NCBI GenBank assembly: GCA_963754655.1
Contig: CAVWGN010000001.1
Coordinates: 448,001-512,000 of the forward strand
Length of the DNA: 64,000 nt
Direction of reading: 5' to 3'
Origin: an uncultured Chlamydiae bacterium
GTDB taxonomy: Bacteria; Chlamydiota; Chlamydiia; Chlamydiales; Parachlamydiaceae
Shown here: positions 41,633-62,255 of the stretch, in pieces
Numbering within the stretch: the stretch's first letter is position 1
How the letters are laid out: every line of letters begins with the position of its first letter
Notes under the pieces: model-generated
What the model was told of the DNA's origin: nothing
Seen by the model: only the letters and a program-made list of their open reading frames with translations
Database searches by the model: none
Position numbers and translations under genes: made by a program

Positions 41633-42664
41633 TCAAGGAAAGAATCCCTCTTCAAAAAAGAAAGAAGTTGTCCATAAAAGTTCTCCTAATCTCTCATAAA
41701 ATTCCTCTTTTTTTTGTAAATAAAAAGAACGATTCTTCAATCCTATTGAATGAAGTTGTTGAGGGGACAATTTTAGAAGAGATTGAATTTGATTCTCCAA
41801 TAAGACAGGATCAACGTAATAATTGATAGCTAAAAACCAAGGTTCTGAATGAGCATAAGGAACTAAACAGCGCGCATCGTGGATAAATTCGTTCATAGGT
41901 GGAGCATCTGTTGTTAAGACTACGGCACCTGTTGATAAGGCTTCCATAATAGAGTGTCCAAAGCCTTCAGTTTCACTTGGACATAAATGAATGCCGCATT
42001 GATTTTGAAGGGTGCGCAATTCTTTTTCAGGAATTCGATAGGGAATCCATTCGAGGTTGGATTGCGTAGAAGCAAAATCAGTTGGATATTTAATAACAGT
42101 TAAAAGGGGAAAATGAGGAGATGAAAGCCAGATATTTAAAATGGGAATCGTTCCTTTTTGAAGGCTTCCTCCTGCCAAATGGAAAAAATGGGAATAATCT
42201 TTTTTGACTTCTTTTCGATAACAATCAGGGCTTGTAAAGCCTATATAATAGGTTTGCTTATTCAATGCTTTGAAAATTCTTTCGATTTCTTTTGTACGAC
42301 ATAAGACTAAATCAATCTTATTGATTAAATCAATTGTCTGTTTATACCATTCAGGATTGGGAATAAACCAATTCAAATGGGCCCAATGATATTTCTCAGG
42401 GCACAAAATTTGAAAAAAAATATTGATGTGCGCACGGCGCTTTTTTGTTTCTTCGAAACTGACAAATTTGACAGAACAACCATATTGCTCTAATGCTTCT
42501 TTAAGAACTTTGAGATCGGTTTCCAATCCTCTACCATTATTTTCGCCGATAAGATTGATTTTTAGTGGCGTGGGAAGAATTTGATTTTCGGAAATAGCAA
42601 AGAGTGCGCAGAAAGAGAAAAGAAAGACAAATAATAAGGCTACAAAAGAAATTTTCTTATTCAT
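41633..42664 (-). CDS. GT-B (family 4-like) glycosyltransferase with signal peptide
   Basis: CPSETEGFGHSIMEALSTGAVVLTTD; N-terminus MNKKISF..LFA|I. Confidence 0.82.
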   Translation of the reverse strand: MNKKISFVALLFVFLFSFCALFAISENQILPTPLKINLIGENNGRGLETDLKVLKEALEQYGCSVKFVSFEETKKRRAHINIFFQILCPEKYHWAHLNWFIPNPEWYKQTIDLINKIDLVLCRTKEIERIFKALNKQTYYIGFTSPDCYRKEVKKDYSHFFHLAGGSLQKGTIPILNIWLSSPHFPLLTVIKYPTDFASTQSNLEWIPYRIPEKELRTLQNQCGIHLCPSETEGFGHSIMEALSTGAVVLTTDAPPMNEFIHDARCLVPYAHSEPWFLAINYYVDPVLLENQIQSLLKLSPQQLHSIGLKNRSFYLQKKEEFYERLGELLWTTSFFFEEGFFP

Positions 42665-43204
42665 TTTTAGTTTATAGCTTAAATTGTTAAGAAAGCATCC
42701 CAGAACTGAGAAATATTCAGTTCTCTCTATCCAAGTTAAAAATAGCAGGATTCCTTTAATAAAATAAAGAAGAATTCTGCAACTAATTTCCAAAAAAATA
42801 TTTAAGGATTGGACTAATTATTTTGTCTTTGGCCCACGCAGTTTTATAATCAACTTATAAAACATTGCTAAATATGGGAGTGCGTTGGGGGTTGATGAAA
42901 ATGCCGTAAAACGAACTTCATCAAGTTCCAACGCACTGCTAAATCGAAAAATATCTATATTTGACAATTTTTTTAAAGCAACTTTTTCAATTTAAAATAC
43001 TTAAAGATTTAGGATTGAAAAATGGGAATAATAAATCTTGAAATATATATGAAAAAATCATAACTTTCTAAAAAATTAATTTTCATTTGTTTTGGGCAGA
43101 ACATCTTACGATATACCAAATTGAAGTCAAAAATGGAAATTTCGGCTTGGCTAAAGCCAATATCATTAATTTAAAGGTAATGAATTGATACGAAGCGGTA
43201 TTGG

Positions 43205-43699
43205 GCGTGTCTTAAAACCTTAGGGCAGAGGAACTGGACTAGTAATCTATTACATTTTTAAACTTTTCCTATACGTTAAGTTAAAAGATGAGCTTAGGTT
43301 AAGCGACGCATTCAGTCGCCGCGCCGCTTCGCTCCGGGCTTTAGGTGAGGGGTGTGGGACCCACCGTTCGGTCGTCCTCCGGGCTCGGCATGGTGGACTA
43401 GTATTAGTCGTCTTACGGACTCTACGGCAATGTAGAAGTCATTGAATGCTAGGCAAGGCGTTTTGATCATGCCCCTAGAGTCCGTAGGACGACTGATACT
43501 AGCCCACCGTGACCGAGCCCGGAGGGCGACCGAACGGTGGGTCCCACACCCCTCACCTAGAGCCCAGAGCGAAGCGGCGCGGCGACTGAATGCGTCGCTA
43601 GCCTAAGCTCATCTCTTAGCTTAATGCATAGGAGAGGTTTAAAGCCGTCTCCATTATGAAAAAACCGCTGTAAATGGGTAATAGTTTTTTAAGACACGC
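43205..43699. repeat. Palindromic element family C, copy 2, with outer inverted ends
   Basis: Core arms at about 43258-43643 are homologous to 19991-20381; outer IR GCGTGTCTTAAAA/TTTTAAGACACGC. Confidence 0.82.
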
Positions 43700-43819
43700 T
43701 AAGCGAGTGAGTGAGTCTAGGATATGCTGCACCGCCTTCGGTTATGTCAATATAAGTAGATGCATTAAAGATAATAGAGAGATCTTCAGTGAAATTAAAG
43801 CATGAAAATCCAAATTTAC

Positions 43820-44294: not shown

Positions 44295-44335
44295 CTTAAG
44301 ATTGCATATGAGCAATCGCTAAAGAAACGGCAAAA

Positions 44336-45451
44336 ATGAATAGAATTCTTTATTATTTTATAAGCATCCTCTTCACATTAAATGCTATACAAGCAAGCTT
44401 ACCGTCAGATGAAAATACACAAAAAAAAGCGTTGATTTTTGGAGTGACGGGTCAAGATGGACATTACCTTACTGAATTGCTATTAAATAAAAACTATGAA
44501 GTTCATGGTGTTGCAAGGCATGCCCCTTTGCTAGCTAAAACTTCTAGTCAACAATCCAATCAAGATCATTTTTACTTTCACATAGGGGATATTACCAATT
44601 ACTCTCATTTGATTCATTTGATTGGAACAATTCGCCCTGATGAAATCTATAATTTAGCAGCTCAAACTCATGTACAAGCTTCATTTGAATACCCCGAGGA
44701 TACTGCTCAGATTAATGCTTTAGGGACTCTTCGAATTTTGGAGGCAGTGAGGATCTTAGATCTCGAGAAAAAAGTGAAATTTTTCCAAGCCTCTTCCAGT
44801 GAATTGTATGGTCTTGCACAAGAGACGCCGCAAACAGAAAAGACTCCTTTTTATCCTCGCTCACCTTATGGAGTTGCTAAGTTGTATGGCTATTGGATTA
44901 CCGTGAATTATAGAGAATCTTATGACATATTTGCTTGCAATGGAATTTTATTTAACCATGAATCTCCTTTAAGGAATGAAACATTTGTTACGCGCAAGAT
45001 TACCTTGGCAGCTTGCCGACATAAATTAGGGCTGCAAGATGTTCTTTATTTAGGAAATCTAGATGCTAAACGTGATTGGGGATATGCGAAGGACTATGTG
45101 GAGGCCATGTGGTTAATGCTACAACATGAAAAATCTGATGATTATATTATTTCGACAGGTGAAGGATATTCCGTGCGTGAATTTGTTGAACTTGCCTTTA
45201 AAGAACTTGATATTGAAATAGAATGGCGAGGAGAAGGTGTAGAAGAACAGGGAATTGATAAAAAGACAGGAGAAGTCCTCGTAAAAATTGATTCCAAATA
45301 CTATCGCCCAACTGAAGTGACTTATCTTTTAGGCAAAGCTGAAAAAGCTGAAAAAATCCTTAAATGGAAACCCAAAACAAGTTTTAAGGAACTTGTCAAA
45401 ATCATGATTGATGCAGACTATCAAAAAGCATTGAACGAAAAAGCGATGTGA
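44336..45451 (+). CDS. gmd: GDP-mannose 4,6-dehydratase, copy 1, with signal-peptide-like extension
   Basis: [43 protein letters not shown]. Confidence 0.92.
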
Positions 45452-45501
45452 TTTTGTTAAATTTTGAAATATTTATTCTTAACCCTCTCTGAGTAACAAA
45501 T

Positions 45502-46677
45502 ATGTTATTTTATCCTTTTTTCTTTACGCTAGCATGTCTCATTTTTAACTTAACAAATGTATTTGCAAATCATCAAACAATAGACGATGAAAGCAATCAA
45601 CCTAAAAAAGCGATCATTTTTGGCATCACAGGCCAAGATGGTGCTTATCTTACAGAATTCCTTCTAAACAAAAACTATGAAGTTCATGGTGTAATTAGGC
45701 GCTCTTCTTTAGCAAATACCACTCGTCTTGAGTCCTTTATTCAAGATTCAGCAACCTTTAATAAAAGCCTTTTTTTACATTATGGTGACCTAACAGACTC
45801 TATGAGTATTTTTGATCTTATTCAAAGAGTTCAACCGGATGAGATCTACAATTTAGCAGCCCAAAGTCATGTCAGAGTTTCTTTTGATCTTCCTGAATAT
45901 ACAGCAGAAGTAGATGCTCTTGGGACATTGCGTATTTTGGAAACAATTAAGCTATTAAATCTTTCAACAAAAGTAAAATTTTATCAAGCTTCAACAAGTG
46001 AACTCTATGGGCTTGTGCAAGAGACGCCTCAAACAGAAACGACTCCTTTTTATCCTCGCTCACCTTATGGAGTAGCCAAGCTCTATGGCTATTGGATCAC
46101 TGTGAATTATAGAGAATCTTATGGCATATTTGCTTGTAATGGAATTTTATTTAACCATGAATCTCCTCTTAGGGGAGAAACATTTGTTACGCGCAAAATT
46201 ACCTTGGCAGCTTGCCGTCATAAATTAGGGATGCAAGATGTTCTTTATTTAGGAAATCTGGATGCTAAGCGCGATTGGGGATATGCTAAAGACTATGTAG
46301 AGGCTATGTGGCTCATGCTGCAGCAAGATGTACCCAATGACTATGTCATCGCGACAGGCGAAGCACATTCAGTGCGTGAATTTGTTGAGCTTGCTTTTAA
46401 AGAACTTGACATTGGAATAGAGTGGCAAGGAGAAGGCGTAGAAGAGCAGGGTATTGATAAAAAAACAGGAAAAGCCATCGTAAAAATTGATCCTAGGTAT
46501 TACCGCCCAAGTGAAGTTGATTTTCTTTTAGGAAAGGCTGATAAAGCAGAAAAGATGCTTAAGTGGAAGCCTAAAACAAGTTTTAAGGAACTTGTCAAAA
46601 TTATGGTAGAAGCCGATTATAAAATAGGATTAAAGGAAAGAATGTTTATATTGAATGAGCATCCAATAGTATATTAA
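45502..46677 (+). CDS. gmd: GDP-mannose 4,6-dehydratase, copy 2, with signal-peptide-like extension
   Basis: [46 protein letters not shown]. Confidence 0.96.
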
Positions 46678-47702
46678 CAATAAATATGTCAATAGCATTC
46701 CCTGTTAAGTGAATTAAAATTTATAAATGAAAGTAGACCAATAATTGGAGGAGCAGCAATAATGGATAGTTAATGATTATGGTCTACAAAACAAGAACTA
46801 TTTTGAGCGGAGAATACGTAGAAGCTTAAGCGGTTTTTTTCAGAAGGTGCAGTAGTTTTTATTCCTCATTTATATTTTTATTGAGTATTTTGGCTCTTTT
46901 TATCTTTCTGCTTTATTAGTCTTACTTTGGCTTTTGGAAGAAAAAAGATAAATTCCAAACTATAAAACTTATTGTCTTTCTGGCATTCTTTTCAAATTTG
47001 ATTTTTTTCTCAAGTTGTTTGTTGTATTTTTCGCGTGCCTAAATGTAGTACGTATCTTTAACTTATATAGTTCAACAGATTAAGAAATTTAAATTCTCAA
47101 GCAATAACGCTTCTTAGCGCTAAGGATGATCTTCTATATTGTTGAAAATGCCGAGAAAATCAGTCTTTGTTTACACTCATAAAATAGTTGATTAACGATT
47201 TTGCGAACTTATTGCAAAAGTATAAATTTTTATTCATTTACAAAGATTCAAGAGATCGAATTATTTCATATATTTATTTGCTAAGCGATTGAAGGAGGAG
47301 CATCCTTTTTATTCTCTTGATTTTCTAGAATAAAGACACAAATTGAAAAACTTAATTATAGGCCATATATGGTAATTCCCTGTATAGATTTCACCATAAT
47401 ATTCTTTTAAAACTGCGCATCGATTAAGTCATAATGTTTGAAGTACAAGATTTGAACATTGCTAAGTCCTCTAAGGGGAAGCCTTGATAAGCAAGGCAAA
47501 ACAATATTTAAAATTGCAAACTTTTCCGATTTATATTTAACATCTGATCAAGCCAAGAAATAGGAGAAAAATCTTAGGGTTTTCTTTAACATTTAGAAAA
47601 GCAATTATTGGACAAGGGAGAGAATACTTTACTTCTAGACACATTTAACTTTATAAAGAAAATATGTAATCTTTAATTTAATGGGAATATGAAAATCTTT
47701 TA

Positions 47703-49201
47703 GTAATTACTCAGGTCTGCTTAGAGATTAAGTTAAGACTGTGGAAGAAAAATGACTAAAGGATTATCGATAAAAGCTTGTTCTATAGCTTTTAAAATTT
47801 TGAATCCTCTCTTAAGAGCGGTAGAAATAAAGCTTCGCAAGAGGCAAAATATTTTTGCGAAATAGGGTGAACGAAAGCAACCAGAGACCTTCATTTTGAG
47901 TTTCATCATTCGAAGATCGCGTTCGGCTAAGTTATTATCAAATGGAATATTCTTATTTCCTAAAAAGCGCAGCGTTTCTATTTTAACATTTTTCAATCGA
48001 TTAAGTAAATTTTTAGCTTTAGATTGTGCCTATTGTGCAGGACCGGTTTCTTCATATTCTTTAAAACCCCTTTCCAAGATGGCTTCGTACTTTGCTTCAA
48101 ATTCTTTTTGCTTAAGTTGTCTCTCTTCACTTTTATTAATTTCTTGCAATAGCTCCTTCATGTCTTTTGCCCACTTTAGTTTTGTCGTTTCAAAGGCTGC
48201 CTCAAGCTCTCTTAAATGATGAGCGTGGCAAAGAGAATGCTGGCAATCAAACTTAAAGTAAGGAGCATAGTGATCGTGTACAAGAACGCCTCTAAAACTC
48301 GGTAATACATCCATTTCAACCATTGCCAGGTAGCTTCTTCTCGGATGGGCAAAAAATAGCGTTGAGTCTTTAGTTGAGGCAACATGCAACCAAAAAAGTT
48401 GCTTATTTACTTTTAAAGCGGTTTCATCTGCATGCAAAATAGAAGATGTTTTAAGCTTTTTCCTTGAGAATTGCTTCAAAGCTTTGTTAATTTTTAGCTG
48501 TTAATTTTTCCACTCTGAATAAGGAAGCTTGGCTGAGGGTATGGCCAAAAACATCTTGGCAAAACTCTTGTACCCTTTGTGCTGAAACAAAATGATAATT
48601 ATGTAGATAGATAAGTAAGGATTTAAAATGTGGACCGTACTGCACGGGGGCACTTATTTCTTTGGATATACAAGGACGACAAATGGTCTGACAATAGGGA
48701 CATTGAATTTCATGAATATGGTGATCTGTTATCTTAATGCAAAGCTCTGGTATTTCAAACACTTGAGTCTTTGTAATTTGTCTATTAACTTGTTCTACAT
48801 TTTGCCCACATTGAGGGCAGTCTTTTACTTTGTACTCTTTAATTTCATCGGGTGTTTGTGAAGTCTTAAGAGTTCAGCCTTTATGTCCGATTTGTCCCCG
48901 CTTTTCTTGTCACTTTTAGGCTTTTTAGCTACAAATTTTTTAAAAACATCACTAGAAGGCGGCTTCTGACTATTGCTACTATTTCGATTAATTCTTTCCT
49001 CTAAAGCTTTCACTTTCATCTCTAGTTGATGCACTAATTCTTTTAACTTTTGATTCTCTTTCCAAAGAATCAGAATCAATGTATCTTTTTGTTCAGAGGT
49101 TAATTTAGTTAAATCCGGAAGCTTATCCATGCTTAACTCTCTTAATAGAATCTAATTAATTCTATTATAACAGTTTAAGCTTTTTGTGCCTAAGTAGTTA
49201 C
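47703..49201 (-). mobile_element. IS66-family element with frameshifted transposase
   Basis: TIRs GTAATTACTCAGG/CCTAAGTAGTTAC; 8-bp flanks ATCTTTTA/ATTTTTTA; NSSNSQKPPSSD, HADET, CHAHHLREL, PFDNNLAERDLR..K.K.SGCFRS. Confidence 0.9.
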
Positions 49202-49245
49202 ATTTTTTATAGGTAAATTTTCAACGATAAAATATAGAAATAAGC

Positions 49246-50740
49246 GTAACTACTCGGGCTATCAAAATAATTCTATAATTTGTGTATAATAGAGGAGGAT
49301 AACTTGATGGTTTTTTTATGGAAGAGCTCCCCCCTTAATCAATTATCTTTAGAGCAGAAAGATCTGTTGATTATTGAATTATTTGCGTTAGTAAAAGAAT
49401 TAAGAGAAAAAATAGCTTTCTTAGAGAGGAAAAACGCAGAGTTAAAAGCCAAGCTATCTTCTAATAGCCGAAATAGTCACAAGCCACCACCTTCAAGTGA
49501 TGGATTTAAAAAGCCAAAAAGTCTTAGATCCAAGAGTGAAAGACTCAGCGGAGCGCAAAAAGGGCACCTTGGCCATACATTAAAAGAAAGCGATCATCCC
49601 GATCGGGGGAATAGGCATCCCATAAAAAAAATGCCCTCATTGCGCCAGAAGTCTTGGAGAGGAAAATCATTTATATTGGAAAAAAGGCTCAAGTCTTTGA
49701 TATTCTATAACTAAAGATAGAAATAGAAGAATGTTTTTGCCTCAATTGTCAAAAGAGTTGCTCAGCGAACTTCCCTTCAGGAATGCGATTTATGGCCTAA
49801 GAATACAAGCTTTTCTCATCTATTTGAGAGACTATCACTACTTACCAAGTGAACGCACAGTCGAATTTTTTCAAGATGTTTTTCAGCACACTTTAAGCGA
49901 AGGTGTTATCTATCAAGCAGAAATGAATTGTAATGACCATTTAGAAGAGTTCGAAAAGCTGCTAAAGAATGCTTTAAAAGAGGCTCCGTTAAATCATGCA
50001 GATAAGACAACTTTAAGATTAAAAAAAATCATTGGCTACATGTTTTATCTAATCCTTGGTCAACCTATCTTTATATTCACAAAAAACGAGGTGGGAGGCG
50101 ATGGATGAAATAGATATTCTTTCTCACTTTCTTGGAATTCTGGTTCACAATCATTTTAAGCCTTACTTTAAATATGGCTATGAGCATTCATTATGCAATG
50201 CCCATCACTTAAGAGAACTGCAAGCAGTTTTTGATGATACCGGCCATTCATGGGCAGATTTAATGCAAATGTTACTTAAAGAAATTAAAGATACAAAAGA
50301 AACAAAAAGGCTTCTTGCGACTAACAAGAGAGTTTTTCAGACGAATATGATAGACTAATCAATCTTGGATACAAAGAACAAAAGAGCGCTCGCCGCCTTG
50401 TCGCCCAAAAGAGATCTGCTTGCTCGATCGCCTTAAATCTTATAAAACCCCAACTCTTCTTTTTATGTACAAAGAAGAAGTGTCATTTGATAATAACCAA
50501 GCGGAAAGAGACATTCGTATGATGAAACTCAAGATGAAAATAGCTGGGTGTTTCCGCAGTCAACAAGCAGCAAAAGCTTTCTGTCTAATTCGAAGTTATA
50601 TTTTCACCATGAAAAAAAATGGTATGGCTGTATTTCAATTTTTGGCGGATGTCTTTCATCCACCCTCTTCAGATTTCTTCTCAAGTATTCGCTTTTATTA
50701 AATTTGTCAAATCACAAATTATTACAACCTAATTATTTAC
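49246..50740 (+). mobile_element. Second IS66-family element with frameshifted transposase
   Basis: Starts GTAACTACTCGGG, ends CCTAATTATTTAC; flanks [49 protein letters not shown]. Confidence 0.88.
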
Positions 50741-50856
50741 TAATAAGCGCTAATATTGCTTGACTTAATATGGAACCATTTACCATATATCTCTCTACAG
50801 GCGTTAATTTTTTCACACTTGCCCAAGTTTTCAGAATTCAAACAAGAAGGGGGTAT

Positions 50857-51639: not shown

Positions 51640-51664
51640 TTTAAATTTAGTATACAGGAGGAAA

Positions 51665-52498: not shown

Positions 52499-53375
52499 TG
52501 GAAAAATTAAGATTAGTCATCTACCTTTTCATCGAGCTTATTTTAACTGTGTTTTGAGTTTTTCTCTATTTGATTGCGACTTTGATGTAACCAAATGGCG
52601 AAAAAACTCAAAACACCTTCGATGATTGAACTCCTCGTTGATTTTCTAATTTAGACTCCTTGTATACTTAAATTTCAATATTGTTTACTGGTCAAGGGAT
52701 CAGGAAAGCAAAGAATCAATATTTAACTTCATATTTGAAGTTTTGCAAAATTAATTAATTCACGTTGGCACAGCCCTAAAGTGGCCAGTATATCTTCTCT
52801 TTTCTTATGCCTTTCTGTAATTTCTTCGATAACCCAGCTTATAGTCTTACCAAGAGTCTCTTCTAGTACAAATCGACAAGCTTCACCAATTGTATTTAGA
52901 GTGATTTTTGCCCGTTCACACGGATGATTCTTTTTCAATATTGAAACTAAGAGACTATGCGCTAAGATGACAAGATACATGTGCCTTGTTTGGCTTTGTC
53001 CGCTTCTTAGCTGACATTCTCCCATTCCTAAATATTGTTTGCCATCCCGGTGAAATGTTTCTGTACCACTCCAGCGTTTTTTATAAGCGTTCTATATACG
53101 TCTGACTTCCCACTTGATGCGATTAGTCACTAAAATTTTAACTGGATCTTTATCATTCTTTATGTCCCAAAGAATAAGAATTCGCACTTTATGATCAATG
53201 TTGGGAATGTGGCAGCTCTTCGTAAAATACCATTGTTTTTTTTCCATTCCATTCAATCGTTTTCGGTTTTTCGGCTAAATTGATCCAGCCTCTTCAATTG
53301 CATGCATTTGCTTGCCTTGAAAATCTACCCAACGATCGAACTTCAAATCTCCTACATAAGCTCTATCTAAGCTGT

Positions 53376-53890
53376 TATAGTAATTTCAATTTAAAATTTC
53401 TTAATTGCAAACTTTCAAAAAAGATTGATCAATTGCTTCAGCAAGACTTGAAAATAAGTTTAAAACCTCTTTTACACTCCTCTTAAAATTGGCCCAAAAT
53501 TTTTCAATCGGATTCAAATCAGGAGAATATGGTGGTAAAATAAATTTCACATCCTGCCTTTTGAATGATTTCTACGCTTGTTTTGGACTTATGAAAACTC
53601 GCATTATCCATAATGACCGCTTGTCCTGATTTCAGCTCCGGAACTAAGTTGCTCGAGCCATGCGTTAAATAAATTTGTATTGCATGTTCCGGTATAGCAA
53701 AATGGCGCTAAAATGCTTGATTGATTCTGAGCTGCTATAAAGCTTTCCCTAGAATATCGACTTCCGGAAACTGCTCCATATACTTTTTGTCCTCTGATTG
53801 CCCTTGCATTTTCTCTTTGCAAATATTCATGGATCCCACTTTCATCAATATAGACTCTTTTTTCTTCGGGAATGTCTTCCTAAGTTTAAG
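53376..53890 (-). pseudogene. IS630-family transposase 3' fragment
   Basis: YIDESGI, GTCNTNLFNAWLEQ, VIMDNASFHKS, LPPYSPDLNPIE. Confidence 0.85.
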
Positions 53891-53894
53891 AGCA

Positions 53895-54582
53895 TCGCCG
53901 TTACGATACTTCCTTTAAGAAATAATTGATCCAGAAGGTCACAAATTGCAGTAATTTCATTGCTTTTATCATCTACTTTTAGCTGCCCTAAACAAACTTT
54001 ATTTTCACAGCTCCAAGCATGTAAAAGATGAACCACTTGTTTATCATTAGCTTTATCTTTGGATCCACGTAAGCTCTTGCCATCTATTGCAATGACATCA
54101 TCTGCCAACTTTTGTCGAAATAACTGAGCGACTTCTTGAAGCATAGCTTCTAAAGAGAGAGGGTTAATTAGAGAGATCACTCGTTCCAAAGTAAAAGCAG
54201 AGGGAGTACCTGAAGAAATATCCAAGTATTGCCCTAGCCAATCTTGCATAGCCTCTGCCATATTGGACATCTCTTCCCAATCTTCAGCTCCGCATAACAT
54301 AGTAACCGTAATGATGAAAAGAATAGTTGTTAAAGAATAGCTAAAATTTGGAGATAGACCACGAGGATCTTCTATTCTTTCTAAAATTGCTATAAATTGT
54401 GTTTGTGCTGCTGGATGATCGAATATTGGCTTTTTCAAATGAATGAGCGCCCTCTTTTTTTCATGAATAACTCCTAATTTTCATGAATAAGTCCTAATAA
54501 GTAGGTTATAACTCTAAAAAGTATAACTACTTTACAACTAGAAGTCGATTATTCAAAAAAGTGTTTTAATGCTAGAGCCCTG
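53895..54582 (-). pseudogene. ISAs1-family transposase 5' fragment with left TIR
   Basis: DPR, LCGAEDW, AIDGKSLRGS, KSNEITAI; end CAGGGCTCTAGCATTAAAACAC at 54582. Confidence 0.88.
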
Positions 54583-55279
54583 ACTATAATATGATTTAAA
54601 GGCCTTGCATTCGTATAATAGCTATCAAATACGAAGTCTCCCGGAATCTTGTTAGCGACTATCCAATCCACCAATTCAATGAAGAGATCAGTATGATCTT
54701 TGAAAGGAATTTGCTTCTCTTTGCAATTCTCCTCCTTTATAAAGCATCGGAATTCAAGAGGATAATGCTTGCTTGATGAACATATGTAATTGGCTATTAA
54801 ATAATCGTGTGCTATTATGCTTCTTTTTTCTGCATGATCCCCCATCCAGCCTACATCCTCAATAAATTGGCCGTCATGATCAATCAGTACATAATTGTTC
54901 CATACTTTGAATATCTGGTTGTTGGATCTTCTTGGTGAAATTTCAACCTTTCTTCATTTAATTGCTCAGCATTCCAATCAACACTTGTTATCCATCGGTT
55001 TAAGCAGGATTGGTCTGTTGTTTGTGCAAACTCAGCATTCATGCCGTTGGCTGTTTTCCTCTGCGCCAACAATAAACCCGTTAAATACTCTCCAACATGT
55101 TGCCTCTCAGGTTCATTAGCAAAAAGATGTCCAAACTTTTTAATGGCTTCTTGAACAATTTGCGGAAACTCTACTATTGCAGGCATAATAATATCTCCTA
55201 ATAGAAGAGCTATAGTTTTAATTTTACCACATTTTCAAATTTGCAAAACTTCAGTTCATATCTCAATATAGACACCCAT

Positions 55280-55370
55280 ATTTTTAGATTGGAGCTTATA
55301 TTGGAAACACATTCATTAGCTATGTCTAAACGATTAGGGCTATGGAAGGTGAAAGAGTTTTCACAAAGGC
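55280..55370 (+). pseudogene. Degenerate FkbM methyltransferase fragment
   Basis: ATTGGAGCTTATATTGGAAACACATTCATTAGCTATGTCTAAA resembles 51971-52011 (IGAHIGTHTLDMSK). Confidence 0.5.
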
Positions 55371-55430
55371 AGTTGATTGCATCTGTCAATCAAGTTTGAT
55401 CAGAATGGTTTCTATGCAAATTCAATTGCT

Positions 55431-56369
55431 TCAATATTCTTGCAAGATTTTTTCGATAAATTCTTGTACATGTGCTTCTTTTTGCTCATATCCAGCAAAG
55501 TTAAAACTACTTGTATTGAAATGAAATAGTCGCTTATTTAAATGAAATTCTGTAGGTGGATAGTCATCTTTTTTGATAAGTTCAATTTCTATAGGCGTAA
55601 ACCCCTTATCTAATAAGGCCTGTTCTGAGTGTAATGCTAGAGTACTGCCTACTTGCCCCTCATATTTTTTACAATTAACATCTGGATGGTTATTTAAAAA
55701 ATGGTATGTATACGATCCTGTATCATGAAGAATATTATTTACTACTGCTATGTCGAATTTTAACTCTTTCACGTAAGGCATGGTACGTGGATTAAAAGCA
55801 ACAAAAACAACCCATAAATAGTCTATATCAGCATACTCTTTTCGAATACCTATGATATCGTGTTTTTTTAATAGAGTGCGGATATTTAAGGGTCGAATAG
55901 GAAATGCATCTCCATCTACCAATGCAACAATATCATTGTGTTTATATCCATAATTTTCTAAAGCATATTGGATGACATGACAATGTCTGACACTTGGCTG
56001 TTGACCAATATCACTTGGTTGAGGTGAGATGAAAGCATGTATATTAGTAAGACTAGGATTTTTTATCCATTCTGCTATTTCATAATTTAAAGATTCATCC
56101 GGGTGCCATTTCTGCTTATAACGGACACATTTAATTCCATATTTTGCGCAGTTTTCTTTTATCGCTGTTGAAAGAATTGGATCTTTAGCATCATTAAACA
56201 CGATTAATTCATAATCATTACGCATAAATTTCTTAAACATTTTATACTGAATTTCAATATATTGAGGTTTGTTATAATGAAATGTTAAGAAGCGAACTTT
56301 GGCTGAAAGAGGGCTATTGATTACAACTAACATTACAATAAACATAAAAAATTTGTGTTTCATACTCAT
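55431..56369 (-). CDS. Signal-peptide-bearing putative GT-A-like glycosyltransferase
   Basis: YELIVFND, ALVDGDAFPIRP (DxD), DTG; signal ..LSA|K. Confidence 0.6.
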   Translation of the reverse strand: MSMKHKFFMFIVMLVVINSPLSAKVRFLTFHYNKPQYIEIQYKMFKKFMRNDYELIVFNDAKDPILSTAIKENCAKYGIKCVRYKQKWHPDESLNYEIAEWIKNPSLTNIHAFISPQPSDIGQQPSVRHCHVIQYALENYGYKHNDIVALVDGDAFPIRPLNIRTLLKKHDIIGIRKEYADIDYLWVVFVAFNPRTMPYVKELKFDIAVVNNILHDTGSYTYHFLNNHPDVNCKKYEGQVGSTLALHSEQALLDKGFTPIEIELIKKDDYPPTEFHLNKRLFHFNTSSFNFAGYEQKEAHVQEFIEKILQEY

Positions 56370-56469
56370 TTTTCTATTTCCTTTTTTTTTTGTAATTTAT
56401 GCTTATAGCATTTAAAAAATCATAAAGATAAACGTAGGCAATTCAGTTAAAATTTGATTATGAAGAAAA

Positions 56470-57672
56470 TTAACAGGCCTGGATAGTTTGTAGGTCATAA
56501 GATTTAATCACTTTTTTGAGTAAAAATTTCCACTTTTTTAAAACCAGTGCTTTCCTTTTTTGGTTATATTTTTTCATTTTTCTGCTGATCATTTCAACGT
56601 CGACTGTTTTGAGTAATTGTTCTAAATGCTCAAAAGAATGAAAATATTGTATATATGGCATATTCTCTTTATCATAAAAGTCGGCATGATCAATCCAAAA
56701 CTTAATTACATTCGGATCTGATAAGTTATTAGGATCTCCTAGAGTAGTCGGAGGGGGAATAAAATGAAAGAGATGAAAGTAAGACACCTCGTTTAAAATT
56801 TCCTGACTCTTTTTACGTAGCTGAGCCAAGAAAGTTTTAGAGGGGAAAAATAATGGAACATTTGCGCTATATTCTTCAAAAATAGACATTGTACTAATTT
56901 GATAAGGGAAATGAATAATGCCCTTATAATCGTAAAGATCTTGCCAGTTATAAGGACGTGTAAGATCATTACTAATCATTTTGATATACTTTTTTTGCAC
57001 ATAATCAGCAAATTGAGAATTTCTGACCGAAGGTTGACAAATAAAACTTTTTTTCTTCCCAGAATAATGAGCATTAGTATATTGACATAAAGATGGAATG
57101 ACTTCGCCTTTAATTCCAGTATAATATTCTAAATATTTCTGATCCCCTTTATTATTTGCGACTATAAATAATTTATTACGATTGACGCCCTCAATTAAAA
57201 AGTTATCTAGCCAAGACTTTAATTCTGGTTTATCTGTAAAGGGGATTTCATATCTCACTGCGTTAATGATAATTATTGGCTTGTTTGTCTTTTCATAGAA
57301 AAGAGCAAAAGAAGCATTATAAGCTGCAATATAACCATCAAATTGATCTAAGAAGTCTTTATATTTCTCATAAAATTGTTGGTATATTTTTTGATCGGAG
57401 GAATATAGCCATGAAAAATAATCAACAATTTCTACAGGATCATGTTCATATCCTAAAGTCCAACGAGAATTGCTAACGCCTGATGTAGGAACTATCCATA
57501 TCACAACTTCATGGCCTAATTCTTCAAAAATGCTTTTTACATCAGCAGATACTGAACCATGAAAATCAAGACAGAAAAAGCGTAATTTTTTTTTAGGTAT
57601 TTTTTGTAAATCACTAGCAAATAAAAATGAAAAAATAAAAAAAAGACTCATAAAACCAAATACTTTTTTCAT
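56470..57672 (-). CDS. Signal-peptide-bearing putative glycosyltransferase (GT-B-like)
   Basis: LDFH.SV..D, YKGIIHFPYQISTMSIFEEYSANVPLFFPS; signal ..LFA|S. Confidence 0.55.
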   Translation of the reverse strand: MKKVFGFMSLFFIFSFLFASDLQKIPKKKLRFFCLDFHGSVSADVKSIFEELGHEVVIWIVPTSGVSNSRWTLGYEHDPVEIVDYFSWLYSSDQKIYQQFYEKYKDFLDQFDGYIAAYNASFALFYEKTNKPIIIINAVRYEIPFTDKPELKSWLDNFLIEGVNRNKLFIVANNKGDQKYLEYYTGIKGEVIPSLCQYTNAHYSGKKKSFICQPSVRNSQFADYVQKKYIKMISNDLTRPYNWQDLYDYKGIIHFPYQISTMSIFEEYSANVPLFFPSKTFLAQLRKKSQEILNEVSYFHLFHFIPPPTTLGDPNNLSDPNVIKFWIDHADFYDKENMPYIQYFHSFEHLEQLLKTVDVEMISRKMKKYNQKRKALVLKKWKFLLKKVIKSYDLQTIQAC

Positions 57673-57873
57673 AAAAAATCTATATTTTCTAGTTTATATT
57701 GCTTCATGTCTTAAATTTAAATTTATTAAAATTTCTAGGTTGAGATTCGCATTTGTTTTTGCCATTGTAAAGCAATTAATGAAGAATTCGTGTAGGTTGT
57801 GCATTTAGATTTTCGTTTGGAGCGTAAAGGTTTCCTTTTTCAAACCTGTATGCGTACTTTTATAAATGAGTAT

Positions 57874-58815
57874 TTAGAGTTCTTTAGCTGCCATTTTTCG
57901 AAAAACTGAATGAATAGATTGTTTGATATGTGGAAGTTCTGGAAATTCTTTTTGCAACTTTGTTGTATCTAATTCATTATTTGATCTTCGTGCTTTTAAG
58001 ATTTCATTTTGTTCTTCTATCGTAAAGTTCGTATAAGTAAAGTTAGGATCAATATACGTCTTATAAAGATCAAGAAGCTCATTGTGAGAAATGGTGCCAG
58101 GATTCACGAAATTAAAATTTCCTTTTAAATTGCACAAAGTCATCTTAATTGCAATTGGCAAAAGATCATCTAAAATAGACATGGAATTGGGAATATTAAT
58201 GACTTTTTGATACTTTGTAATTTTAGTGATAAAGTTTTTAGGATGTAGTTCAGAAGAAATAGGCATTCTCAGCCGCAAGTTCAAAACATTGGGATAAGAA
58301 TCAAGCAACTTTTCAAGCATGATTTTAGTTTTTGAGTAGAAGGATCCTGCAAAATTAGGTTCATCTTCTTCGGTAAAGCCTTTGCCGCTGCCCATGGGGT
58401 GCTCAGCATCATATTCATAGATACAGCCAGTCCCAAAATTGGTGACGTGAATGTCATGAAGATAAGCGATATCTGCTAAATTTAATATTCCAATAATGTT
58501 GGTGCGAATTGTTTGTTGTTGATGGTCCTCGCACCAATCAACATTGGGAGTTCCAGTCAATCCTGCACAATTGAAGATGTAATCTGGACGTCTGAGTTGA
58601 ATTTCGCTTTCGACTTCTTCTCTATTTTCCAGTCTTGATTCTGCGACATAGACAATCTGGCCCTCTTCACGCAAAAGGACAACCATTTTTTGTCCAATCC
58701 AACCAGTTTTTCCTCCCCAAACTAAAAAGACTTTATTTGAATTTTCATCTGCATAACCATACAATCGGCTGATAAGAAGACATAAAAAAAATATAAAATT
58801 TAGTGAATTTTTCAT
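57874..58815 (-). CDS. NDP-4-keto-6-deoxyglucose 3,5-epimerase/4-reductase (NRS/ER, eukaryote-type rhamnose synthesis) with signal peptide
   Basis: GGKTGWIG, AGLTGTPNVDWCEDH, GTGCIYEYD..HPMGSG.GF.EED.PNF.GSFYSKTK, LRLRMPIS, RRSNNELDTTKL. Confidence 0.9.
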   Translation of the reverse strand: MKNSLNFIFFLCLLISRLYGYADENSNKVFLVWGGKTGWIGQKMVVLLREEGQIVYVAESRLENREEVESEIQLRRPDYIFNCAGLTGTPNVDWCEDHQQQTIRTNIIGILNLADIAYLHDIHVTNFGTGCIYEYDAEHPMGSGKGFTEEDEPNFAGSFYSKTKIMLEKLLDSYPNVLNLRLRMPISSELHPKNFITKITKYQKVINIPNSMSILDDLLPIAIKMTLCNLKGNFNFVNPGTISHNELLDLYKTYIDPNFTYTNFTIEEQNEILKARRSNNELDTTKLQKEFPELPHIKQSIHSVFRKMAAKEL

Positions 58816-58854
58816 GAATATTCCTTTGTCAATTGTGTTTTTATATTCAAGCTA

Positions 58855-59976
58855 TCATTGTAAAATGAGTTCACCATTTGGTGTGCGAATTTCAATAAGA
58901 GAATCATTTTCCATCTTCTGCCAAATTTCAGGATGATTTTTGTACCATTCAATTGTTTGATGAATTCCTTCTTCTAAAGAAATTGTTGCACTCCAGTTGA
59001 GCAGAGCCTTAGCTTTGTTAGTAGAAGAAATATGGGTATCAACTTGGCCAGGTCGATCGGTGATAAACTTCAATTGAGAATAAGGCAAGTTAAACTCTTT
59101 AAGAATGAGATGGGCAATTTCAAGGACGCTTGTTGCAATACCTGAACCAATATTGATGACTTGTTGCTTAATTGAATCAAAATTTTCAAGATGTAAGGCT
59201 GCATCGATGGCTTTAGCCATATCTGATGTGTGTATCCAATCTCTTTTTTGTTGCCCTGAGCCATGAATGGTTAAAGACTCGCCTTTAATAGCCGATGTGA
59301 TAAGGCGTGGAATCAACTTTTCCAGGTGTTGGTTAGGTCCATAATTATTAAAAGGACGTAAAATTACAGCGGGTACGTTAAAAGTACAACAATAAGAATA
59401 GACTAATCGATCAGCACCCACTTTTGCTGCAGCATAGGGCGAACGTGCATTGAGCAGATGCTCTTCATTCATAGGTTCGCTTTCAGCTGTTCCATACACT
59501 TCCGAGGTCGATATATGAATAAAGCGTTCAATATTTTTAGAATATTTGACAACAGCGCTCATGAGCACACGAGTTCCAAGGACATCTGTGGAAAAAAACA
59601 CAGCATCATCTTTAATACTGCGTGTCACATGTGTTTCGGCTGCAAAATGCACTACAAAATGAGATTTAGCCATGGCAGCATTCACAACGCTTTCATTTGT
59701 AATGTTATCATGAATAAATTCAAAGCGCGGCGATTTTTGAATATATTCTGGAATCTTATCTAAAGAACCGGCATAGGTAAGAGCATCTAAAACGATAAGC
59801 TTATAACTGGGATATTTATCAAACATATATTTGATGAAATTGCTCCCAATAAAACCAGCTCCTCCTGTTACTAAAACGGTTTTCTCATTTTCATTTGGTA
59901 AAGTTTCTCGGGCATATAGAGCCGACTGCTGTGAAAGAAAAAATAAAAGGTATAGAGTTAGACGAAAGTAGGCCAT
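58855..59976 (-). CDS. rfbB: dTDP/UDP-glucose 4,6-dehydratase with signal peptide
   Basis: VTGGAGFIGSNF, DALTYAG, HFAAETHV, HISTSEVYG, SPYAAAK, NNYGPNQ..EKLIP. Confidence 0.9.
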   Translation of the reverse strand: MAYFRLTLYLLFFLSQQSALYARETLPNENEKTVLVTGGAGFIGSNFIKYMFDKYPSYKLIVLDALTYAGSLDKIPEYIQKSPRFEFIHDNITNESVVNAAMAKSHFVVHFAAETHVTRSIKDDAVFFSTDVLGTRVLMSAVVKYSKNIERFIHISTSEVYGTAESEPMNEEHLLNARSPYAAAKVGADRLVYSYCCTFNVPAVILRPFNNYGPNQHLEKLIPRLITSAIKGESLTIHGSGQQKRDWIHTSDMAKAIDAALHLENFDSIKQQVINIGSGIATSVLEIAHLILKEFNLPYSQLKFITDRPGQVDTHISSTNKAKALLNWSATISLEEGIHQTIEWYKNHPEIWQKMENDSLIEIRTPNGELILQ

Positions 59977-60242
59977 ATAGTTCCTTGGTTTTCAAATAAA
60001 AACAGGTTAAATTGAGCTAAAATTTTAAAAGAAAAGGTATAAAAAACAAAAATTAATTTGCAAGTTAAAATGGCATCTTCCTATATAATATTTATGATAA
60101 CTTTCATTTCTCCAGCCATATTGGGATTAATCCGGTTAAATTAACAGGAGTAGAAAACCCTGGTTAAAATGAAAATTACATTATATAGTCATCGTTTTTT
60201 TATTGATAGTACCTTCCTATTAAATGCTCTTAGGATTCATCT

Positions 60243-62255
60243 ATGAATATTTTACCTTTCTTACTTCCTTTAGCAGGATTGCTTTTTCTATCGTTTCTTC
60301 AAACGCTGGAAGCTCAACATTCAGACTCTCCCAATTATCTTTTTGAAGAGGGTGAACTCATTTTTCCTTCCGATCAATTTAAAAAAGAGGCCAATTTACA
60401 GTCATGGGCGCTTTTCAATGAAGCGCGAGACAATAGAGAGGCATTTTGGGCCAAGCAAGCGCAATGTCTGCATTGGTTTCGTACTTGGGAGCGCGTCTTG
60501 GAATGGAATCCTCCCTATGCCAAGTGGTTTGTGGGCGGGAAGCTAAATGCGTGCTACAATTGTTTAGATAGGCATATGCAATCGGCGATTCGTGATAAAG
60601 CTGCCCTCATTTGGGAGGGAGAAAGAGGCGAAGAAAGGACATTGACCTATGCACAGCTCTATCAAGAGGTTAATCAATTTAGCAATGTTTTGAAATCGTT
60701 GGGCATTCAAAAGGGAGATAAGGTAGTCATTTATCTTCCTCTGATTCCTGAGGCAGCTGTTGCAATGCTGAGCTGCGCACGCATTGGTGCCGTGCATACA
60801 GTTGTGTTTGGAGGTTTTTCTGCAGAGGCTTTAAAAGATCGTATCTTAGATGCAGAAGCCAAGCTTGTCATTACAGCGGATGGGGGATTTCGCAAAGGGA
60901 AGATTGTTCCTCTTAAAGAAGCCGCTGATTTAGCAGCTAAAGAATGCCCTTGCGTGCAGAATGTCATTGTTATTAAACATACTCAGCAACCTATTCCTAT
61001 GCAGAAAGGACGAGATCATTGGTATGATGCCTTAATGAATCATGCTCAACCTTTCTGCCCTGCCGAAGAAATGGATGCCGAAGATGTGCTCTACATTCTT
61101 TATACTTCGGGCACAACAGGTAAGCCTAAGGGCATTGTACACACAACAGGTGGCTACATGGTGGGAGTGACAATGACCACCCGTTGGGTTTTCGATATCA
61201 AGCCTTCTGACATTTACTGGTGTACAGCTGATATTGGTTGGGTGACCGGCCATAGCTATGTGGTTTATGGTCCTCTTTCCAATGGAATGACACAGCTGAT
61301 GTATGAAGGAGCTCCTGATTGGCCGCAAAGAGATCGCTTTTGGAAGCTAATTGAAAAATACAAAGTCAGCATTCTTTACACCGCTCCTACTGCGATTCGT
61401 ACCTTCATGAAATGGGGAGAAGAGTGGTTAAAAGGCAGCAACCTCTCTTCATTGCGGCTGCTGGGATCCGTGGGAGAGCCTATCAATCCACAAGCATGGA
61501 TGTGGTATTATACGCATGTGGGACAAGAAAAATGTCCTGTGATTGACACTTGGTGGCAAACGGAAACAGGCAGTATTATGATTGCTCCTATTCCGGGGTT
61601 GACAGCTCTTAAACCGGGTAGCGCAACGCTTCCTTTACCAGGAGTAGATGTGGCAATTCTAAATGAACAGGGCGAACATTCCTCTTCAGGCTTGCTTGCC
61701 ATCACTTCTCCTTGGCCTTCGATGCTAAGAGATGTTCATAAAGATCCTAAGCGATATGAAGACACTTATTGGAAAAAGTGGGAGGGTCGTTATTATTTTA
61801 CTGGCGATGGGGCTAAGCAAGATGTAGATGGCTATTTTTGGCTCATGGGACGTGTCGATGATGTGATGAATATCTCTGGTCATCGCATTGGTACAATGGA
61901 AGTGGAAAGCGCTTTTGTCGATCATCGCAGCGTGGCAGAAGCGGCAGTGATTGGAATTTCTCATCCAATTAAAGGACAAGCAATTGCGGCTTTTGTGACT
62001 CTTAAAGAGGAGTTTTATTCTAGCAAAGAATTGGAAGAGGAGCTCAAGCAACATATTGTTAATAAAATTGGCGCTATTGCACGGCCAGAAAAAATAATTT
62101 TCATCTACGATCTTCCGAAAACACGAAGTGGGAAAATCATGCGTCGCCTTCTTCGTGATATTGCTGAAGGAAGGATTTTAGGAGATGTCACGACTTTATC
62201 CGATCCAGCAGTCATTAATGAAATTAAAAGCAAATACGACGATGAAGCAATTTGA
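60243..62255 (+). CDS. acs: Acetyl-CoA synthetase (AMP-forming) with signal-peptide-like extension
   Basis: YTSGTTGKPKG, WCTADIGWVTGHSY, DTWWQTETG, LPKTRSGKIMRR. Confidence 0.96.
   Translation: MNILPFLLPLAGLLFLSFLQTLEAQHSDSPNYLFEEGELIFPSDQFKKEANLQSWALFNEARDNREAFWAKQAQCLHWFRTWERVLEWNPPYAKWFVGGKLNACYNCLDRHMQSAIRDKAALIWEGERGEERTLTYAQLYQEVNQFSNVLKSLGIQKGDKVVIYLPLIPEAAVAMLSCARIGAVHTVVFGGFSAEALKDRILDAEAKLVITADGGFRKGKIVPLKEAADLAAKECPCVQNVIVIKHTQQPIPMQKGRDHWYDALMNHAQPFCPAEEMDAEDVLYILYTSGTTGKPKGIVHTTGGYMVGVTMTTRWVFDIKPSDIYWCTADIGWVTGHSYVVYGPLSNGMTQLMYEGAPDWPQRDRFWKLIEKYKVSILYTAPTAIRTFMKWGEEWLKGSNLSSLRLLGSVGEPINPQAWMWYYTHVGQEKCPVIDTWWQTETGSIMIAPIPGLTALKPGSATLPLPGVDVAILNEQGEHSSSGLLAITSPWPSMLRDVHKDPKRYEDTYWKKWEGRYYFTGDGAKQDVDGYFWLMGRVDDVMNISGHRIGTMEVESAFVDHRSVAEAAVIGISHPIKGQAIAAFVTLKEEFYSSKELEEELKQHIVNKIGAIARPEKIIFIYDLPKTRSGKIMRRLLRDIAEGRILGDVTTLSDPAVINEIKSKYDDEAI

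Follow-up and report, generated by a model that had tools for sequence, protein, structure and literature searches.

This study concerns a group of ten intact enzyme genes at positions 41633-62255 of a 64,000-nucleotide (nt) stretch of chlamydial DNA, which was analyzed as a whole and is referred to as the window (C1:448001-512000, in a genome of 3.16 Mb on two contigs with a GC content of 38.8%). The genes encode enzymes of nucleotide-sugar conversion, glycosyl transfer, methylation and acetyl activation, and they are split by two decayed IS66 copies and other transposase remnants. All ten products open with a leader of 19-24 amino acids (aa) ahead of the catalytic domain, as the initial annotation of this DNA had claimed, and all open reading frames (ORFs), coordinates and cleavage triplets quoted there were reproduced.

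The enzyme island and its setting

The features of the island and its immediate neighbor are as follows.

41633..42664, minus strand: GT4-type glycosyltransferase, 343 aa from the inner ATG; leader residues 1-23 at nt 42596-42664
44336..45451, plus strand: GDP-mannose 4,6-dehydratase 1 (Gmd1), 371 aa; leader at nt 44336-44395
45502..46677, plus strand: GDP-mannose 4,6-dehydratase 2 (Gmd2), 391 aa; leader at nt 45502-45567
46678..50769: interruption by two decayed IS66-family transposases in opposite orientation, 47733-49130 (minus strand) and 49280-50701 (plus strand); Pfam DDE_Tnp_IS66 and DUF6444 on fragments
50857..51639, plus strand: class I S-adenosylmethionine (SAM)-dependent methyltransferase, 260 aa from ATG 50857; leader at nt 50857-50922; Pfam Methyltransf_11/25
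51665..52498, plus strand: FkbM-family methyltransferase, 277 aa; leader at nt 51665-51736
52499..55430: interruption by DDE_3 and DDE_Tnp_1-associated transposase remnants; Pfam matches on 53401-53550, 53604-53822 and 53845-54438
55431..56369, minus strand: glycosyltransferase of modeled GT-A fold, family without a name, 312 aa; leader at nt 56301-56369
56470..57672, minus strand: glycosyltransferase of modeled GT-B fold, family without a name, 400 aa; leader at nt 57616-57672
57874..58815, minus strand: NRS/ER-type UDP-4-keto-6-deoxyglucose 3,5-epimerase/4-reductase, 313 aa; leader at nt 58750-58815
58855..59976, minus strand: nucleoside diphosphate (NDP)-glucose 4,6-dehydratase, 373 aa; leader at nt 59911-59976; Pfam GDP_Man_Dehyd and Epimerase
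60243..62255, plus strand: acetate--CoA ligase (Acs), 670 aa; leader at nt 60243-60314
62356..62862, plus strand: neighboring protein of 168 aa that has a leader and, at the C-terminus, a hydrophobic segment; it is without a family and may or may not belong to the system

Both Gmd proteins clearly exceed the cut-off of the NCBIfam gmd equivalog (TIGR01472; 415 bits), with 509.5 bits for Gmd1 (domain from residue 30) and 580.7 bits for Gmd2, and their matches cover profile positions 1-340 of 342. Acs scores 971.9 bits against Ac_CoA_lig_AcsA (TIGR02188; cut-off 724.95) and is single in the genome, where other AMP-binding matches reach at most 32% identity over partial regions. The FkbM-type enzyme matches fkbM_fam of NCBIfam with 93.8 bits (cut-off 37.7) and the GT4 protein Pfam Glycos_transf_1 with 38.6 bits (cut-off 26.4); a paralogue of the latter, 43% identical and likewise with a hydrophobic N-terminus, is encoded at C1:1538310-1539404. 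The NRS/ER-type enzyme aligns with the solved proteins 4qqr (E 1e-105, residues 25-302) and 7jid, a UDP-L-rhamnose synthase (E 5e-66, residues 30-309), and matches the RmlD profile only weakly (50 bits, cut-off 224). The protein next to it had been labeled RmlB; Pfam and PDB matches (best 6bi4 at 8e-69) confirm a 4,6-dehydratase, but the RmlB equivalog TIGR01181 is missed (307.5 bits, cut-off 365.1), and the enzyme presumably uses UDP-glucose, as read from its NRS/ER partner.

Two further proteins, described in the initial annotation as glycosyltransferase-like, are without any Pfam or NCBIfam family. For the first, an AlphaFold (AF2) model with a mean predicted local distance difference test score (pLDDT) of 95.4 retrieved glycosyltransferases as leading Foldseek matches, which we take to be GT-A folds, in a list that also holds the nucleotidyltransferase 4ecm. 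Among its best structural matches are the lumenal enzymes COLGALT1, LARGE1 and XXYLT1, and residues D152 and D154, invariant in 45 sequences, form a DxD motif. The model of the second (pLDDT 91.9) led to GT-B-type glycosyltransferases and two UDP-GlcNAc 2-epimerases at modest TM-scores of 0.35-0.58; here residues 2-22 form a helix apart from the domain, which starts at residue 31. In both models the leader is such a separate N-terminal helix of lower confidence. Modeling thus shows the two proteins as predicted Leloir-type glycosyltransferases, one GT-A with a DxD motif and one GT-B, in line with their first description.

Window proteins have relatives in Protochlamydia, Parachlamydia, Simkania and Rhabdochlamydiaceae records, all Chlamydiae, and a Protochlamydia-type outer-membrane protein family is encoded within the window. 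The GC content of the island stretch is 29-37%, compared with 38.8% for the genome, and that of the IS66-interrupted part (46678..50769) is 33-35%. The island is a low-GC transposon graveyard, with the IS66 pair lying face to face and DDE_3 and DDE_Tnp_1-associated remnants beyond. The 1.5-kb gap without genes that separates the GT4 gene from gmd1 contains a large nested inverted repeat (43257-43643). Its arms measure 87 nt, with 97% complementarity, and 45 and 44 nt; together they make up a hairpin-like element some 390 nt long, which has no Rfam match and may be a palindromic mobile or regulatory element. An Rfam scan of 41000-64000 gave no family at gathering score. Inspection of ORFs and Pfam matches revealed no flippase or polymerase gene within the island, no public sequencing runs, RNA included, are listed as covering 55300-62300, and protein-atlas look-ups gave leads only ("glycosyltransferase" clusters, chlamydial and phage).

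Leader architecture, start codons and conservation

In all ten leaders the start is short and mostly basic, a hydrophobic core follows, and the end is polar with alanine at position -1. With a slash at the predicted cut, the triplets read LFA/I (GT4), IQA/S (Gmd1), VFA/N (Gmd2), SQA/A (class I methyltransferase), AWA/Q (FkbM), LSA/K and LFA/S (the two family-less glycosyltransferases), GYA/D (NRS/ER), LYA/R (dehydratase) and LEA/Q (Acs); A stands at -1 throughout, and variants at -3 are tabulated as A, S, V, L, I, Q, W, F or Y. That the catalytic folds follow the leaders was borne out by Pfam, NCBIfam and PDB alignment starts: Pfam domains begin at residue 33 in Gmd1, 39 in Gmd2, 35 in NRS/ER and in the dehydratase and 56 in Acs, and the PDB alignment of NRS/ER at residue 25. 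No lipobox cysteine at +1 and no twin-arginine motif can be seen in the ten leaders. For their architecture, other proteins of this genome served as controls. The median uncharged stretch and hydrophobic core measure 17 and 10.5 residues in the ten leaders (core range 10-21, the 21 in GT4 only), 18 and 13 in 17 other sugar or nucleotide enzymes, 20.5 and 13.5 in 18 periplasmic or outer-membrane proteins and 23 and 15.5 in four bitopic anchors. By these measures, the leaders resemble the N-termini of the periplasmic and outer-membrane controls and not those of the bitopic anchors.

A first question is whether the leaders are made at all. In seven of the ten genes, i.e., GT4 (to residue 47), Gmd2, FkbM, GT-A, GT-B, dehydratase and Acs, no ATG, GTG or TTG lies between leader and domain, and AGGA-type Shine-Dalgarno motifs stand 6-11 nt upstream of six leader ATGs, e.g., AGGAGG at this distance from the FkbM start; the class I methyltransferase has the Shine-Dalgarno-like motif GAAGGGGG upstream. 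On the reading frames, the leaders are shown to be part of the predicted translation products, and true starts downstream, named beforehand as a refutation of the exported system, are ruled out for these seven; the class I methyltransferase, NRS/ER and Gmd1 do have some later in-frame start, which in Gmd1 falls only inside the first strand. The longest ORFs of GT4 and the class I methyltransferase extend further, to TTG 42793 and ATG 50770, and their leaders are N-terminal only when the inner ATGs at 42664 and 50857 are the starts.

A deliberately lenient leader heuristic was applied genome-wide, where it flags 611 of 2458 ORFs (532 of the 1980 with at least 150 aa). Since only this share is flagged, ten out of ten in a row is very unlikely to arise by chance (about 1e-6, assuming independent genes). 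In the rest of the window, flagged ORFs are surface or membrane proteins, and the 14 unflagged ORFs of at least 150 aa take in every cytoplasm-type family (EF-Ts, UMP-kinase type, RRF, MetK, response regulator and NFACT). Pfam scans took in 115 ORFs from 31 stretches (heuristic-positive ORFs number 334); one of these scans took 80 proteins from elsewhere in the genome, namely 79 flagged ORFs and one sulfotransferase added by hand. Flagged ORFs with a family match there belong mostly to exported families (NamZ, ZnuA, PBPs, amidase, OEP, HlyD, porins, peptidases and cyclophilin), and false positives of the heuristic are Rossmann first strands.

Many homologues carry comparable extensions. Among the 120 closest Gmd homologues (67-87% identical), 104 have a hydrophobic extension whose sequence is not conserved, and in six (72-77% identical) the first strand stands at the N-terminus without one. 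The 104 Gmd leaders hold a lysine or arginine in the N-terminal part in 83 cases and a net-negative start in none; past the stretch, an acidic residue is the first charged one in 90 leaders and a basic residue in 14. Across 13 relatives' genomes, nine of 15 Gmd copies, from four families of the order, carry the extension. In the GT-A family a leader is present in 108 of 120 homologues, chlamydial records among them, and the remainder are mostly truncated gene calls. Among the best 150 representatives of the 1256 GT-B matches, an extension is present in 15 (several, though not all, of the top-ranked matches among them) and absent from 96, which begin directly with the first strand, and 39 could not be anchored, while the 120 closest Acs homologues divide into 50 with a leader, 69 without and one not anchorable. 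On trees, leader presence clusters weakly, with 23 changes for Acs versus 35-42 in ten shuffles and 10 changes for Gmd versus 11-16 in 200 shuffles; some "absent" rows are truncated gene calls. As the leaders vary in sequence yet recur across Gmd, GT-A, Acs and NRS/ER relatives, we conclude that they are under selection, and that this selection acts on the leader property and not on the leader sequence. The Gmd and GT-B comparisons further suggest that the leader is an addition to families normally without one.

These data bear on the simplest alternative, namely that AT-rich ORF extensions upstream of the true starts mimic leaders on ordinary soluble, cytoplasmic enzymes. The GC content of the island favors F, I, L, K and N codons, the starts of GT4 and the class I methyltransferase are ambiguous, and three genes have the later in-frame starts mentioned above. 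However, seven of the ten genes offer no later start before the fold, the extensions are open, ATG-initiated and signal-peptide-like in hundreds of diverged homologues, and among about a dozen low-GC transposase remnants of the island only one 83-aa ORF (52729-53025) is flagged, at an inner start. An artifact of low-GC composition, ruled out by the leaders kept in homologues and by the nearly complete lack of flags on the remnants, is hence largely refuted, and we hold it to be highly improbable.

The segments could also be real and yet remain uncleaved, anchoring the enzymes on the cytoplasmic face as a metabolon that feeds lipid-linked or ABC/Wzx-type glycan export. This would place the enzymes where NADPH, ATP, CoA and SAM are readily at hand, and it would suit Gmd2 and Acs, which lack a positive charge ahead of the hydrophobic stretch, the clusters of lysine and arginine soon past the stretch in Gmd, GT-A and GT-B, and the 21-residue core of GT4, which has membrane-spanning length. 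Against it, lysine or arginine stands at the very start in eight of the ten leaders of the window and in 16 of 17 other sugar-enzyme leaders, which argues for an outward domain; a basic start together with an acidic flank, the latter found in 90 of the 104 Gmd leaders, implies an inside N-terminus and an outside domain. Moreover, median cores of 10.5-13 residues are as short as in the periplasmic controls and shorter than the 15.5 of the bitopic anchors, and the -3/-1 pattern with A at -1 is present in all ten. A membrane-tethered metabolon with cytoplasmic domains, which the initial annotation had offered as an option, is thus disfavored by the positive starts and by stretches no longer than those of periplasmic proteins, and we consider it unlikely.

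Leader-bearing enzymes across the genome and across phyla

Although the system was initially placed within 41633-62255, it is not limited to the island. Elsewhere in the genome, leaders are borne by a GDP-L-fucose synthase (488 bits, just below the equivalog cut-off of 500), a GalE equivalog, a phosphoglucomutase/phosphomannomutase (PGM/PMM), two Ppx/GppA-family proteins and a bifunctional ATP-sulfurylase/APS kinase (PAPS synthase) adjoining a sulfotransferase. Leader-bearing transferases include members of GT10, GT17 and GT34 (the last fused to a methyltransferase), five GT92, several GT2 and the GT4 paralogue. Two tandem genes for nucleoside diphosphate kinase (NDK; C1:2886485-2888275) encode an ordinary enzyme of 151 aa (NDK_a) and one (NDK_b) in which the NDK domain is preceded by a leader and about 70 residues of Q/N/P-rich linker. 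A second export-tagged island (C1:247432-253995) holds a sulfotransferase, a GT2, a 206-aa protein, the GDP-fucose synthase and the bifunctional PAPS synthase, all with leaders, and suggests that sulfation, too, may be extracytoplasmic. Judged from this inventory, the ten genes form a single island, variable and riddled with transposons, within a far larger leader-tagged toolkit.

Leaderless counterparts exist in the same genome. They comprise an rmlABCD cluster (C1:432435-435809, RmlB included), a second GalE-like short-chain dehydrogenase/reductase (SDR), GlmM-like and PGM-like mutases, NDK_a, GlgC, a GlgA-like protein and nine GT2. The search for signal-less paralogues proposed in the initial annotation is thus answered in part: they were found for RmlABCD, GalE, PGM and NDK, and none for Gmd, NRS/ER or Acs in this genome. 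The predicted leaders are thereby shown to mark complete pathway sets that stand beside leaderless paralogues.

The genome-wide inventory also bears on where substrates might come from. Neither a GDP-mannose pyrophosphorylase (ManC) nor GalU was found, a genome search with PF00483 returning only RmlA, GlgC and two weak matches, and GlmU was not found in the genome either. Four TLC/NTT nucleotide transporters are encoded. As such importers reside in the inner membrane, host nucleotides have to pass through the periplasm, and the initial objection that NAD(P), NTPs and SAM are not expected there carries little weight in this organism. Import of NAD+ and glucose-6-phosphate has been reported for relatives. 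An EamA/DMT-family transporter is encoded at 36974-37900, a few kb upstream of MetK and the island; the EamA/DMT superfamily includes nucleotide-sugar and SAM carriers.

For enzymes anchored on the cytoplasmic face, the missing ManC and GalU would leave the pathway without a cytoplasmic feed, and the leaderless paralogue set would be redundant. The UDP-sugar pyrophosphorylase points the other way. This core chlamydial, eukaryote-type enzyme (C1:267781-269223; found in 40 of 41 relatives) bears an extension in this genome that looks like a leader, and its core role, with no GlmU found, is easier to understand if the segment leaves the enzyme in the cytoplasm. Its gene has an in-frame Met at the position where the orthologues start, and the extension recurs in only three of 16 orthologues, for which reasons we withdrew this leader as extra support; alternative starts might give leader-bearing and leaderless forms.

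NRS/ER allows the leader to be followed across phyla. Among 41 sampled relatives, the gene was found in this genome only, a rarity consistent with acquisition by transfer, and 17 loci in genome contigs encode relatives of the enzyme. A leader stands directly before the first strand in all 13 readable bacterial relatives, whose record titles include Parachlamydiaceae, Chlamydiae, Chlamydiales, Dependentiae (three), Verrucomicrobiae (one) and Pseudomonadota (one). A fourth Dependentiae copy ends at a contig edge, the archaeal copies comprise one without a leader and one ambiguous case, and a Flavobacteriales match is 26% identical. In ten of the 13 loci an adjacent dehydratase-like SDR bears a leader as well (one is cut by the edge and two loci have no adjacent SDR), and leader-bearing GT-A and FkbM homologues often lie near. 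The loci in Chlamydiae, Dependentiae and Verrucomicrobiae suggest that the cassette has been co-transferred between bacterial groups. In three Dependentiae loci (L081, L084 and L086), NRS/ER and the SDR adjoin leader-bearing proteins of about 225 aa without a family, which are common to all three.

A cassette common to unrelated protist-associated bacteria is often seen for effectors, and the enzymes might be secreted, via Sec and then type II secretion or outer-membrane vesicles, to act in the host cytosol or on host membranes, where they would alter the nucleotide-sugar pools or glycosylate targets of the host and not of the bacterium. All cofactors are abundant in the host cytosol, GT10, GT17, GT34 and GT92 are families of eukaryotic secretory-pathway enzymes, and NRS/ER is nearest to the plant enzyme. 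In a Dependentiae pathogen, 44% of coding sequences were assigned signal peptides and secreted effectors were proposed, and the available part of that genome paper makes no mention of glycosyl enzymes (PMC6561590). Complete multi-step pathways with recycling enzymes (NDK_b and the Ppx/GppA type) would, however, become dilute in the cytosol of a host with GDP-fucose and UDP-sugar synthesis of its own, and the sequences give no pointer past the periplasm; we regard secretion into the host as distinctly unlikely.

Further genes of the window are recorded as side observations. A leader-bearing collagen-repeat protein (1880-2683) and a 2060-aa protein with 13 He_PIG Ig-like domains (5971-12153) are possible surface proteins and could be acceptors of glycans made by the toolkit. 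At 25366-29894, an MbnB/TglH/ChrH-type enzyme of the kind modifying ribosomally synthesized and post-translationally modified peptides and its DUF2063 partner adjoin three small, paralogous, leader-bearing proteins, which may form a peptide-modification cluster. Finally, an archaemetzincin-like Peptidase_M54 (62924-64000, running past the window end) has an N-terminal membrane segment with an "AACY"-type motif, and N-termini of this type recur on otherwise unrelated ORFs at C1:600919, 609315 and 2545004.

Proposed export into a Golgi-like compartment: weighing and comparison

The reading we favor, with a confidence a little better than even, is a Sec-exported, Golgi-like glycosylation toolkit that works in the periplasm or inclusion lumen on host metabolites. 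The initial annotation had already proposed an exported glycan system running on host nucleotide sugars, and this core of its proposal is the one best supported by the comparative evidence, i.e., selected, signal-peptide-like leaders on coherent pathways beside leaderless paralogues; its confinement to 41633-62255 did not stand, given leader-bearing enzymes genome-wide and, beyond this genome, in records from several families of chlamydiae, from Dependentiae and from Verrucomicrobiae. We infer from sequence comparison the export itself, the cleavage, the compartment, the host origin of the substrates, the products and the acceptors.

According to this proposal, the enzymes would cross the inner membrane into the periplasm, where signal peptidase I would release them or they would be retained on the outer face, and could pass onward to the inclusion lumen. 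Substrates would be drawn from the host via the outer membrane, namely GDP-mannose, hexose phosphates or UDP-glucose, NTPs, NAD(P)(H), SAM, CoA and sulfate. The Gmd pair together with the leader-bearing GDP-fucose synthase encoded elsewhere could then provide GDP-fucose, and the 4,6-dehydratase with NRS/ER could provide UDP-L-rhamnose. GT4, GT-A and GT-B, joined by the leader-bearing GT10, GT17, GT34 and GT92 proteins, would transfer sugars onto envelope or secreted acceptors, the two methyltransferases would yield O-methylated glycans, and Acs would supply acetyl-CoA for acetylation. Such a system would operate like a Golgi lumen, without a lipid-linked flipping step. To go by the enzyme families, the products would be glycans that bear fucose, rhamnose and O-methyl groups and perhaps acetyl and sulfate groups as well.

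Several points weigh against export. To our knowledge, there is no bacterial precedent for Sec export of enzymes that need NAD(P)+ in tightly bound form and NADPH, ATP, CoA and SAM in stoichiometric amounts outside the cytoplasm. Clusters of lysine and arginine lie directly past the predicted cleavage site in the GT-A and GT-B proteins, and such clusters hinder Sec export in E. coli. The leaders of Gmd2 and Acs start without a charge, that of GT4 has a long core, and an ATG at residue 33 of the class I methyltransferase and a TTG at residue 18 of NRS/ER make leaderless products possible. The Acs leader is labile (50 homologues with versus 69 without it, and at least 23 state changes on the tree), the ambiguous UDP-sugar pyrophosphorylase cautions against equating a leader-like ORF extension with export, and a small leaderless nucleotidyltransferase (C1:442798-443494) could make some cytoplasmic NDP-sugar.

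The nearest described system is the glycogen metabolism in the inclusion lumen of Chlamydia trachomatis, and the closest functional analogue would be the lumen of the eukaryotic Golgi. In C. trachomatis, glycogen enzymes without a signal peptide are secreted by type 3 secretion into the inclusion lumen, where they run on imported host UDP-glucose (PMC4829429), and PGM was described as a secretion substrate (PMC9251005). As there, normally cytoplasmic sugar enzymes, PGM included, would here be moved out to a controlled compartment supplied with a host nucleotide sugar. The route differs, with Sec-type leaders instead of type 3 secretion, and so does the enzyme set, which here comprises Gmd, GDP-fucose synthase, 4,6-dehydratase, NRS/ER, GalE, Golgi-type transferases, methyltransferases, PAPS synthase, NDK and Acs in place of glycogen enzymes.

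The lumen of the eukaryotic endoplasmic reticulum (ER) and Golgi holds type II membrane glycosyltransferases as well as lumenal SDRs, such as UDP-xylose synthase and the plant UDP-glucuronate 4-epimerase. The enzymes described here share with them an N-terminal hydrophobic targeting segment followed by a Leloir domain, the families GT10, GT17, GT34 and GT92 and, by inference, the presence of nucleotide-handling enzymes in the same compartment as the transferases. In contrast to the Golgi, the bacterial compartment would be the periplasm or a vacuole, and no nucleotide-sugar antiporter was identified, although none was searched for. Eukaryotes keep Gmd, GDP-fucose synthase, NRS/ER, PAPS synthase and Acs in the cytosol, whereas here these enzymes bear leaders.

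Conventional bacterial surface glycans are made by cytoplasmic NDP-sugar pathways, lipid-linked intermediates and periplasmic transfer. Common to that scheme and to the present genome are gmd, an RmlB-like dehydratase and the GT4, GT2 and FkbM families, and the leaderless rmlABCD set is retained. While the nucleotide-sugar steps of the conventional scheme are cytoplasmic and leaderless, a second, parallel set with leaders exists here, and the island holds no flippase or polymerase. The plant NRS/ER (4qqr) and 7jid resemble the island enzyme in being bifunctional 3,5-epimerase/4-reductases with a 4,6-dehydratase as separate partner. In the alignments the two solved proteins begin at their residues 10 and 6, respectively, and lack a counterpart of the leader, unlike the bacterial relatives with their 13 of 13 leaders. 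Intracellular pathogens are known to secrete nucleotide enzymes, e.g., secreted NDKs and the Legionella ecto-NTPDase. Similarly, the leader-bearing NDK and the two Ppx/GppA proteins would handle NDPs and NTPs outside the cytoplasm, here beside a full glycosylation toolkit, which sets them apart from those examples.

Chlamydial and verrucomicrobial relatives of plant nucleotide-sugar enzymes have been noted before, with no mention of leaders in the available part of that report (PMC3220709). In the chlamydial and Dependentiae literature, subscription journals lying outside its coverage, no description of export-tagged nucleotide-sugar enzymes was found. Exported sugar metabolism is known from chlamydiae, and there is a substantial chance that the toolkit described here is categorically new for bacteria.

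As a wider and more tentative proposal, which we hold to be possible though short of probable, protist symbionts, at least Chlamydiae and Dependentiae, may run their periplasm or vacuole as a Golgi-like organelle. A full Sec-exported Leloir pathway, comprising activation, interconversion, transfer, methylation, sulfation, acetyl-CoA supply and recycling, would operate there on host metabolites without lipid-linked flipping and would modify the envelope or secreted proteins, and its cassettes would spread between phyla. The proposal predicts that the bacteria carry fucose, rhamnose and O-methyl sugars, that mature N-termini lie past the leaders and that the enzymes are active in the periplasm. 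Export-tagged SDR enzymes would offer a ready metagenome marker of an intracellular lifestyle, and complex glycans on organisms without sugar-activation genes could find an explanation. If true, the rule of bacterial glycobiology that nucleotide sugars are cytoplasmic only, with lipid-linked donors outside, would be broken, and the role of the chlamydial vacuole as a pathogen-controlled metabolic compartment would extend from glycogen to surface-glycan chemistry.

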